Notes: a model not told the origin generated them from the letters alone. 64,000 nucleotides of DNA from a virus (IMGVR_UViG_3300031576_000011:1-64000); one strand, 5' to 3'; positions 57,279 through 59,610 are shown, numbered from the stretch's first letter. Translations and numbers: made by a program.

Positions 57279-58919
57279 CTCCTCGCGGATCTTTCACGTT
57301 CCTCGGGTTCGACGGCTCGCGACTCGTAGACGTCCCTGGGTCTGGGCGGCTCGCGGTCGATTCGCGTTCCTGTCACCTTCCGGCTCGCGGGCTCCTTCCG
57401 TGCCTCCGGTACATCGGCTCGCGCTGAAGGTCCGTGCCTGTGCATCGACGGCTCGCGTGGCGTCCACGTTCCTCTCGCTCACCGGCTCGCGCGCTCCGGT
57501 CGTTCCTCTCTTCGGACGGCTCGCGAACCCTTCTCGTGCCGGTCTTCACACGGCTCGCAGGCTATCAGCGTTCCGGTTCATCTTCGGCTCGCTCGCCAGA
57601 TACGGTCCGTACCTCAAACGGCTCGCGCAACTCATACGTCCCTTACCTGCACCGGCTCGCGCCTGCGTCACGTTTCTCGGAGGGTGCGGCTCGCGTGCTC
57701 GGCTCGTGCCTCACGGTTCTCGACTCGCGCACCTCGTACGTCCCGTGGTTTCAGAGGCCCGCGACCTCGGTTCGTTCCGGTTCCTGGACGGCTCGCGCCC
57801 TTCTGGCGTCCCTCCCAGTCCTCGGCTCGCGCCGATTCTCCGTCTCGCCGGTAGTGCGGCTCGCGAACGCTTTCCGATCCTGGCCTGCCACGGCTCGCTG
57901 GCTTCCATCGATCCGATGGAGATGCGGCTCGCTCTGTCCGTACGTGCCTCGATTCCGACGGCTCGCTTCCCTTCAACGCTCCTTCCGGTGCGCGGCTCGC
58001 GCCCCCTTTCCGTTCCGAGTCCACTACGGCTCGCGCTTTGTCAACGTACCGAGATACCTTCAGCTCGCGGACGATCTCCGTTCCGGAGCGAATCCGGCTC
58101 GCTACTTCCGTACGTTCCTCGCCTCGCTCGGCTCGCGGCCTCCATGCGTTCCTTGACTCGAACGGCTCGCGCTTCCCACCACGTGCCCACTGTTATACGG
58201 CTCGCGTCGCTCCCACGACTCTCTTGTCGTTCGGCTCGCTCGGGAGTTCTCGTTCCTGCCGTCCCGCGGCTCGCTGGCAACTCACGTTCCTCGCCCATTC
58301 CGGCTCGCTGCGCCGCCTCGTCCCGGTCGTACCACGGCTCGCTTCTCTTGGACGGACCTTGGCCAGCACGGCTCGCGATCAATCAGCGCTCCTCAACTTC
58401 TTCGGCTCGCCCATCTTCCACGTGCCGAACCCTGTCGGCTCGCTCCTTCTCTTCGTGCCTCCCGTCGCACGGCCCGCGATCCTTGGTCGCCCCTCTCGTA
58501 CTGCGGCTCGCGCAGATCTGGCGTTCCTCGACCCTTGCGGCTCGCTCCTGATCCACGTACCGAGTTTCCTCCGGCTCGCGTCTAGCGAGCGTGCCTCCTT
58601 CCTCGCGGCTCGCGCACCTTCCACGTTCCGAGCGATCCCTGGCTCGCGACTCATAGACGTCCCTGGGTGTGGGCGGCTCGCGATGGTCGCACGTTCCTGC
58701 CGCATGACGGCTCGCTCCCGCTCGACGTTCCGGTGGCTCATCGGCTCGCGTCCATTTTGCGGATCTGCATGACCTCGGCTCGCTACTGGTCGGCGTGCCT
58801 AGTACCGGGCGGCTCGCGAGCGGTCCACGTTCCTTGGACAACACGGCTCGCGATCGGTTCACGTTCCTGAACGCTCTCGGCTCGCGGTAAGAGGACGGGC
58901 CGACCACGGAACGGCTAGT
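57279..58919 (-). repeat. TIGR-like dual-repeat guide-RNA array: 48 units, 34-bp period, two 9-nt variable spacers per unit
   Basis: Plus-strand unit CGGCTCGC(G/T)-N9-CGTNCC(T/G)-N9 parsed by hand; edge repeats at 57279 (degenerate), 57313, 57347 ... 58844, 58878, 58912 (degenerate); two 35-bp units and one 33-bp unit. Confidence 0.9.
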
Positions 58920-59610
58920 CCTTCGTCTCCTTGCGCGACCCGATCCATCTCGCCCCCTTGACCAGGTTGCATCGAAGGTGCGACGTCGCGCAGTTCTTCT
59001 TCGTGTGCGACCCGCCACGAGCAAGCGGCACGACGTGATCCAGCGAGAACGACATCGGATGCCTCCCGGCTGGCCATTGCGCGAACCGCCCGCAGAGATG
59101 GCATCGTCGTCCGTCGCGCAGGTAGACCTGGCGGGCGTCGACCTTCTCGGTGCGACTTCCGCGCATCTTGGCGCGCCGCCGATGCTGCTTCTCGGCTCCG
59201 CGTGCGCGAACCCGTTCAGGATTCTTCGCTCGATTCTCTCGATGCCACCGGTTGACCATGAGCCTATAGCGCTCGTAGTTCGCCGAGATCCATGCCAGAA
59301 TGTTTTCGCGGATCCTGGTTCGGTTGGCCTTTCGATATCGCGCAGCGTTGGCGCGAGCCCTCTCCATGTTCTCCTGCCACCAGCGTTTCGCGTACGCTCG
59401 GCATCGGTACCTGAACTTGGCGTCGCTCCGGTACTTGGATCGTCTCTCTGCGTTGTACCTGTCCTTATTCCTGGCGTAGAACCGTCGCTCGAGTCTGCGC
59501 CACTGCTTCGGGTTCTTCGACTTCCAGAGTTCGTGGTAGCAGGTACCACACCGCTCGTGGGCGTGGATCTTCCTGATTCGTCCACACTCGCAGCAGCGCC
59601 TCGTTCTCAC
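58915..59610 (-). CDS. HNH endonuclease (231 aa) between the Tas-like gene and the array
   Basis: CHLCG...SLDHVVPLARGGSHTKKNCATSHLRCNLVKG; GTG start overlaps the upstream TGA. Confidence 0.88.
   Translation of the reverse strand: MRTRRCCECGRIRKIHAHERCGTCYHELWKSKNPKQWRRLERRFYARNKDRYNAERRSKYRSDAKFRYRCRAYAKRWWQENMERARANAARYRKANRTRIRENILAWISANYERYRLMVNRWHRENRAKNPERVRARGAEKQHRRRAKMRGSRTEKVDARQVYLRDGRRCHLCGRFAQWPAGRHPMSFSLDHVVPLARGGSHTKKNCATSHLRCNLVKGARWIGSRKETKD

Follow-up and report, generated by a model that had tools for sequence, protein, structure and literature searches.

In a 64,000-nucleotide stretch of viral DNA (the window: the first 64 kb of the 97,306-bp IMG/VR virus record IMGVR_UViG_3300031576_000011, which has a completeness estimate of 75%), a gene for a free-standing HNH endonuclease lies between a tas gene of the nuclease-less TasA type and its TIGR dual-repeat array, an arrangement for which we found no published description. 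The reading that we favour, and consider rather probable, is that the gene encodes a Tas-independent nuclease, horizontally acquired and probably homing-endonuclease-like, inserted at the tas-array junction. We favour it because the protein belongs to a generic family, because its codon usage is foreign, because the same slot is empty in other tasA loci, and because a nuclease gene of another superfamily shows a parallel insertion at a second locus (L014). The original prediction, made from the sequence alone, had offered two options, a selfish homing-type nuclease, towards which it leaned, and a split TasH whose nuclease is recruited in trans; family, codons, slot and L014 favour the first, while no positive support was obtained for the second. 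The features of the locus are as follows.

59607-60809 (-): tas gene, TasA type (coiled coil and Nop domain), 400 aa, ATG start at 60809
59607-59610 (-): GTGA overlap of the HNH start and the tas stop, read directly from the sequence
58915-59610 (-): free-standing HNH endonuclease gene (product P0001), 231 aa, Pfam HNH
59536-59595 (-): Zn-ribbon-like N-terminal Cys cluster (CxxC...CxxC) of the HNH protein, residues 6-25
59164-59547 (-): basic helical-repeat region of the HNH protein, residues 22-149, eight helices with RxWxxxNPE-type repeats
58945-59118 (-): HNH catalytic domain, residues 165-222, with the DH...N...H..CN motif intact
58886-58919 (-): first array unit, degenerate but in register, with edge motif ACTAGCCG
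57287-58885 (-): TIGR dual-repeat array, 47 intact units in a unit-by-unit parse
57279-57286 (-): truncated final edge repeat GCGAGGAG, the end of the array in the same parse

The HNH gene is packed between tas and the array

The genes form a minus-strand operon that runs from an intein-bearing Snf2-type helicase gene through a DUF932 gene to tas, the HNH gene, the array and a small open reading frame (ORF). The GTG start of the HNH gene (59610-59608) shares bases with the TGA stop of tas (59609-59607), and the GTGA overlap that the original prediction had placed at 59607-59610 is confirmed by the sequence. A Shine-Dalgarno-like GAGG is found at 59621-59618, 7 nt 5' of the HNH GTG, and a search for promoter- or terminator-like sites between tas, the HNH gene and the array found none.

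At its 3' end the gene runs into the array. An intact array unit consists of the edge repeat GCGAGCCG, a 9-nt spacer, the loop repeat AGGAACG and a second spacer of 9-11 nt; 44 of the units measure 34 nt, one measures 33 and two measure 35. The TAG stop of the HNH gene (58917-58915) falls within ACTAGCCG (58919-58912), which precedes the first intact edge repeat (58885) by exactly one period of 34 nt. When scored with a position weight matrix (PWM) this degenerate first unit reaches only -1.0, against a 99.9th percentile of 0.17 for the background and about 25-32 for typical intact units, so that its register is the main reason for accepting it. With that qualification, the earlier claim that the stop codon lies inside a degenerate first edge repeat stands. 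In a PWM scan of the HNH gene and the 3' end of tas, no array unit rose above background except the in-register one at 58919.

The HNH protein belongs to a widespread family of stand-alone nucleases

The product of the gene matches Pfam PF01844 with 35.3 bits (cut-off 21.4) over residues 170-220, and it is the single Pfam-HNH match in the 97-kb record. It keeps D191/H192, N206, H211 and N215 together with Cys170, Cys173 and Cys214, at columns that are invariant or nearly so in 50 aligned relatives (C170, C173, H192, N206, H211, C214 and N215 are the invariant ones). The AlphaFold2 (AF2) model has a mean pLDDT of 93.5 and comprises a small beta ribbon, eight Arg/Lys-rich helices and an HNH core. 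The beta strands (residues 3-5 and 12-15) lie at the Cys cluster, whose first Cys column is kept in at least 70% of the 50 family members and whose later Cys column is kept in most, and the helices occupy residues 22-149, with RxWxxxNPE-type repeats that match the family-wide repeat consensus. The N-terminal Cys cluster, Arg-rich helix and intact HNH that had been described from the sequence are thus borne out by Pfam, by the relatives and by the model, the helix being resolved into eight. Judged by its sequence, P0001 is an ordinary free-standing HNH endonuclease with its catalytic residues intact.

The family is large, with 19,709 cluster representatives at E ≤ 1e-3, none of which is closer to P0001 than E 1e-30 (best identity 34-45%). 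Its members, found in phages and metagenomes, are stand-alone proteins of 150-270 aa that share one plan, a Zn ribbon, then basic helical repeats with a probable role in DNA binding, then a metal-dependent HNH core. All three features described from the sequence occur across the 50 aligned relatives; they are common property of the family and not adaptations to Tas. Among PHROG families the protein matches 338, 8660 and 1035, all annotated 'HNH endonuclease'; PADLOC gave no match for it, and NCBIfam no matching model. The nearest solved structures, by sequence and by fold (Foldseek), are McrA, the HNH domains of Cas9 and the Gme HNH nicking enzyme.

We then looked at the genomic settings of the family. 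In the 5-kb flanks of the 80 closest viral relatives (615 kb in total) there was neither a tas gene nor a TIGR-like array; 36-nt periodicities near two family loci (L155 and L173) were rejected as TIGR arrays, being collagen-like coding repeats. One full-length relative lies among tail-fibre genes (L010, 9624-10382 (-)) and another in the replication module of Caudovirus D_HF2_7, three small genes after the replicative helicase gene. A single-protein search of viral contigs returned no close relatives. A packaging nuclease of the terminase-associated, HK97 gp74 type was also considered and rejected, as the terminase large subunit (Terminase_6N match at 16314-16709) is encoded about 42 kb away, and the HNH gene has tas, the array, DUF932 and Snf2 as its neighbours.

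The exact 231-aa product is absent from a collection of 15 billion proteins in which the adjoining Tas is present. Apparently, automatic gene callers missed the HNH ORF or chose another start.

Composition and codon usage set the HNH gene apart

The more AT-rich character of the gene, already noted in the original prediction, is clear from its GC content, 0.618 compared with 0.713 for tas and 0.698 for the genome, and from the GC content at third codon positions (GC3), 0.77 compared with 0.95 for tas. The GC3 of the gene exceeds the values at its first and second positions (GC1 and GC2), as expected for a coding frame. In an amino-acid-normalised synonymous-codon score covering 97 genes, the HNH gene ranked 5th lowest and tas 84th, with the caveat that these ranks are approximate, since the gene set was drawn up with a crude GC-frame heuristic. 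The rare-type Arg codons AGA, AGG and CGA make up 26 of the 49 Arg codons of the HNH gene and 3 of 37 in tas, with a genome figure of about 18%. By codon usage the HNH gene is not native to the tas operon, and in composition and codon choice it is atypical in the way of free-standing homing endonuclease genes.

The adjoining gene encodes a true Tas of the TasA type

The product of the tas gene passes the NCBIfam equivalog model NF052498 (TIGR_Tas_endo) with 113.1 bits (cut-off 100). PDB sequences similar to it include TasR (9mty, E 1.5e-18) and TasH (E 3e-4), and a Foldseek search with its AF2 model gives TasH (9vzx/9w04) and TasR (9mty) as the best structures (E about 1e-9, target TM ≤ 0.7). 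The neighbour that had been called Tas-like is therefore a true Tas. The protein combines a coiled coil with a Nop domain, and the array next to its gene carries two short spacers per unit, as in TIGR-Tas systems. Pfam returned no nuclease domain in it, or anything else, and a Tas without nuclease domain is of the TasA type. PADLOC models gave no match for Tas. An alternative upstream start (GTG, 60959) would give a protein of 450 aa, and the protein collection records the 400-aa form; of its N-terminus, the first 55 residues or so are predicted to be disordered except for one helix.

The closest relative of this TasA, P0004 from a 15.6-kb Logan contig, is 47% identical over aligned columns (43% in the local alignment of the search). 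The clade that they form (P0003/P0004) has two large insertions, at about residues 155-220 and 300-340 of the window protein (400-aa numbering), which are absent from 18 other TasA proteins, and the window TasA and P0004 share an invariant 17-residue motif, WTYCGLGLRPDGTIQRR. The clade seems to be very rare, with two members among 5.8 billion clusters in a word-based search. Protein-pattern scans found no further close relatives, and a degenerate DNA pattern of the invariant YCGLGLRPDG, run on metagenome, genome and viral collections, gave two chance matches without a Tas.

The tas-array slot in other loci is empty or holds another nuclease gene

Our survey took in 87 distinct tasA genes of IMG/VR, all of them distant (identity about 25-35%). 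In 50 of the 59 loci with a downstream array, the array starts at most 150 nt from the tas stop (median 0); in the window this gap is 654 nt and is occupied by the HNH gene. A Pfam-HNH search of all parent records of the 87 genes found no HNH gene between tas and array, so that the position of the gene, which the original prediction had proposed to look for in homologous loci, is not shared by any of these.

Some of the surveyed phages do have an HNH gene elsewhere, and these were rejected as cases of the same slot because they have another explanation or are not adjacent. At L010 an HNH gene (4568-5209 (+)) lies 83 nt after tasA and overlaps the terminase small subunit gene downstream, which marks it as the terminase-associated type; within 1.5 kb of this tasA no TIGR array was detected. 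At L033 the HNH gene lies beyond the array and a further gene, and in the L072/78/96/103 clade it lies upstream, with one to five variable small genes between it and tas. The L010 phage has, in addition to tasA, two HNH genes, one of the P0001 plan (the relative among tail-fibre genes) and one of the terminase-associated type.

At L014 (IMGVR_UViG_3300007512_000043) the junction is filled by a different nuclease gene. There, a T5orf172/MUG113 (GIY-YIG-like) gene of 248 aa (7321-8067) occupies the space between tas and array and ends in a stop codon that overlaps the first array repeat. In loci whose Tas is 70-83% identical to that of L014, the array begins 10-370 nt past tas and there is no T5orf172 homologue. 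A mobile-type nuclease gene can therefore insert precisely in the tas-array slot with equally tight packing, and for this reason the 'no leader' arrangement seen here is no sign that the genes are functionally coupled. The T5orf172 gene also matches the PADLOC candidate defence family PDC-S57.

Comparison with described systems

Described Tas nucleases carry an HNH or RuvC domain in cis, at the N-terminus (PMC12045711), in agreement with the background given by the original prediction. The HNH type is TasH (SpTasH of Salicola phage CGphi29; PDB 9w03, 9w04 and 21kl; PMC12045711, PMC13421893), which resembles the window in bringing together an HNH domain, a Nop-type Tas and a dual-repeat array in a phage. 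In TasH, however, the HNH is the N-terminal domain of one polypeptide, while here it is a separate ORF 3' of tas, and the HNH protein of the window has a long helical-repeat arm of its own, unlike the HNH of TasH. With E ≤ 1 as the limit, the search of PDB sequences returned no TasH chain for the HNH protein, and none is among its 50 best Foldseek hits; neither the single-polypeptide fusion nor a specific relatedness to the HNH of TasH is seen in the window. Fusion by frameshifting was considered and rejected: the HNH gene is read in the -1 frame with respect to tas, a frame that is open far upstream, but the last tas codons contain no X XXY YYZ slippery heptamer, and an earlier shift would remove the C-terminus of Nop. 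Among word-sharing relatives (of near length for Tas, and longer for HNH) there was no fused Tas-HNH protein, which is weak evidence.

A second comparison is with the dual-repeat TIGR-TasA systems typified by FpTasA of Flavonifractor plautii (PMC12045711), where Tas is likewise nuclease-less and has the conserved C-terminal Y...H loop region that is also present here. The systems of this type and the window share a long dual-spacer array on the same strand with truncated edge repeats at both ends, a layout that has been published for dual-repeat arrays (PMC12045711). The window differs in its period of 34 nt instead of the usual 36, in the two large insertions of its TasA, and in the nuclease gene that intervenes. 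For TasA, no clear protein associations have been described except with ParB-like genes (Faure et al. 2025, PMC12045711), and a repressor function has been reported (bioRxiv 10.64898/2026.09.09.750476). Neither the TIGRFinder preprint nor the PlTasA/SpTasH preprint mentions a nuclease acting in trans.

Third, the gene can be set beside the free-standing HNHs of phages (PHROG 338/8660/1035; Pfam PF01844/PF14279), with which it shares the domain plan, the situation as a small gene between unrelated genes and the atypical composition. It is unlike them in lying between tasA and its TIGR array and in having no close characterised member. Finally, the nearest parallel in position is L014, where a small gene of a mobile-type nuclease family also lies at the tas-array junction with its stop overlapping the first repeat; that locus differs in the nuclease superfamily (GIY-YIG-like), in an 83-nt gap after tas without GTGA, in a 36-nt period and in a Tas that is about 26% identical.

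Origin and role of the HNH gene

According to the favoured reading, the HNH gene would most likely have been acquired horizontally and then inserted between tasA and the TIGR array. It would now be co-transcribed and translationally coupled with tas, yet its product would act independently of TasA and the guides. In a homing lifestyle, the nuclease would cut HNH-less alleles in related phages, near the conserved 3' end of tas or the first repeats, and repair would then copy the HNH gene into the cut allele. The gene, its domains and active-site residues, its codon usage, its position and the insertion at L014 are all directly observed, and from them we infer both that an insertion took place in this lineage and that the nuclease homes.

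Several observations weigh against this reading. The GTGA overlap, the GAGG and the lack of a promoter or terminator site between the genes suggest that the nuclease is made whenever TasA and its guides are made, and a partner of TasA could likewise be expected to be made in this way. The HNH gene is also intact, and the phage record, 75% complete, has no other Pfam-HNH match. Its GC3 falls only at about the 15th percentile of the crude gene set, which is not extreme, and part of its AT-richness is accounted for by a Lys/Asn/Arg-rich amino acid composition. Mobile nuclease genes have presence/absence polymorphism as their hallmark, and this is seen for the L014 insertion only. And since a nuclease gene directly after tasA recurs, in the window and at L014, the junction could be an accessory slot instead.

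The first alternative is a two-component TIGR effector, in effect a split TasH, in which the complex of TasA and its guide RNA (tigRNA) would find the target and the separate HNH would be recruited in trans, either as a stable subtype or as an intermediate on the way to fusion or away from it. We regard this as unlikely, at perhaps one chance in a handful. It fits the translational coupling, with tas, HNH gene and array forming what appears to be a single transcription unit, the intact active site of a protein that is the sole Pfam-HNH match of the record, and the recurrence of nuclease genes directly 3' of tasA (L014). The insertions of the P0003/P0004 clade would be a conceivable docking surface, by analogy with SpTasH, whose HNH domain is docked by a beta-hairpin inserted into Nop (bioRxiv 10.64898/2026.08.11.744272). 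The family tells against it, being generic, with no tas near the 80 viral members closest to P0001, as do the foreign codon usage relative to tas and the survey, in which none of the 87 distinct tasA genes has an HNH gene between tas and array. Family, codons and survey together speak against a partnership of long standing between HNH and Tas. Moreover, the protein has no specific similarity to the HNH of TasH, the gene order is reversed with respect to TasH, the word-sharing relatives include no fused Tas-HNH (weak evidence, as said), and published surveys give TasA no partner other than ParB-like proteins. Complex prediction of TasA and HNH with alignments gave an ipSAE of 0.00 in both runs; these runs had no controls and are not used as evidence.

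In a wider form of the same idea, TasA would recruit the co-translated HNH, perhaps through the clade insertions, and the junction would be a slot that captures stand-alone nucleases (HNH, T5orf172) and from which TasH-like fusions arise. This proposal is equally doubtful in our judgement.

The second alternative is a phage housekeeping nuclease, neither selfish nor linked to Tas, which might degrade host DNA, process replication or recombination intermediates or help packaging; this we hold to be improbable, a little under one chance in five. The gene does belong to the leftward operon, early or replicative, that also holds the DUF932 and Snf2-family helicase genes; among annotated phage genes, those closest to its HNH domain are HNH genes at the genome ends of actinophages; and the full-length relative in Caudovirus D_HF2_7 lies three small genes past the replicative helicase gene. 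The terminase is 42 kb distant, though, foreign codon usage speaks against a long-resident core gene, and the exact tas-array slot, which elsewhere is empty or holds another mobile-type nuclease, fits insertion better. Lastly, that the ORF is not a real gene, arising as a frame left open by chance in GC-rich DNA or as a decaying pseudogene, might be thought from the absence of the exact 231-aa product among the called proteins of the public collection and from the long spurious ORFs that are common in the region, and is very improbable given its similarity, along the full length, to a conserved family of which it has lost no catalytic or Zn-binding residue, the Pfam match above cut-off, the pLDDT of 93.5 and a GC3 above GC1 and GC2.

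TIGR-Tas is a very young field, and TasA is thought to repress rather than to cut. Cooperation of the HNH protein with TasA, if real, would give the TIGR-Tas family its first trans-acting nuclease, together with a natural example of modular RNA-guided nuclease assembly, useful for engineering. On the likelier reading, of a Tas-independent inserted nuclease, the tas-array junction would be a landing site for mobile nuclease genes, with two independent cases from two superfamilies. This would matter for annotation, since pipelines could take loci of this kind to be nuclease-active systems, or overlook an array that does not directly follow tas.

Further observations on the array and the operon

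The 34-nt period of the array is unusual. Nearly all of the surveyed distant tasA loci with array signal have a period of 36 nt, and 34 was seen only in L068 and L082. Within the array, units 8 (58681-58648) and 47 (57354-57321), both on the minus strand, are near-duplicates: their first spacers are CCCACACCC and CCCAGACCC and their second spacers TCTATGAGTC and TCTACGAGTC, with one central-base difference in each pair. This could reflect a unit duplication or two variants of one target.

Outside the array, the best PWM match is a solitary unit-like 34-mer at position 88681 (-) of the record, beyond the window, with a score of 16.8 that equals the background maximum, and the second best, with a score of 13.1, lies at 59944 (-) of the window, within the tas coding region. 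Both may be due to chance, or may be orphan or intragenic guide units.

The Snf2-type helicase gene at the head of the operon (61871-63955 (-)) carries a Hint/intein insertion (Pfam Hint_2). It is overlapped, in another frame, by an ORF at 62869-63534 (-) with a GC3 of 0.78, low as in the HNH gene, which would fit a second mobile nuclease element of the operon.

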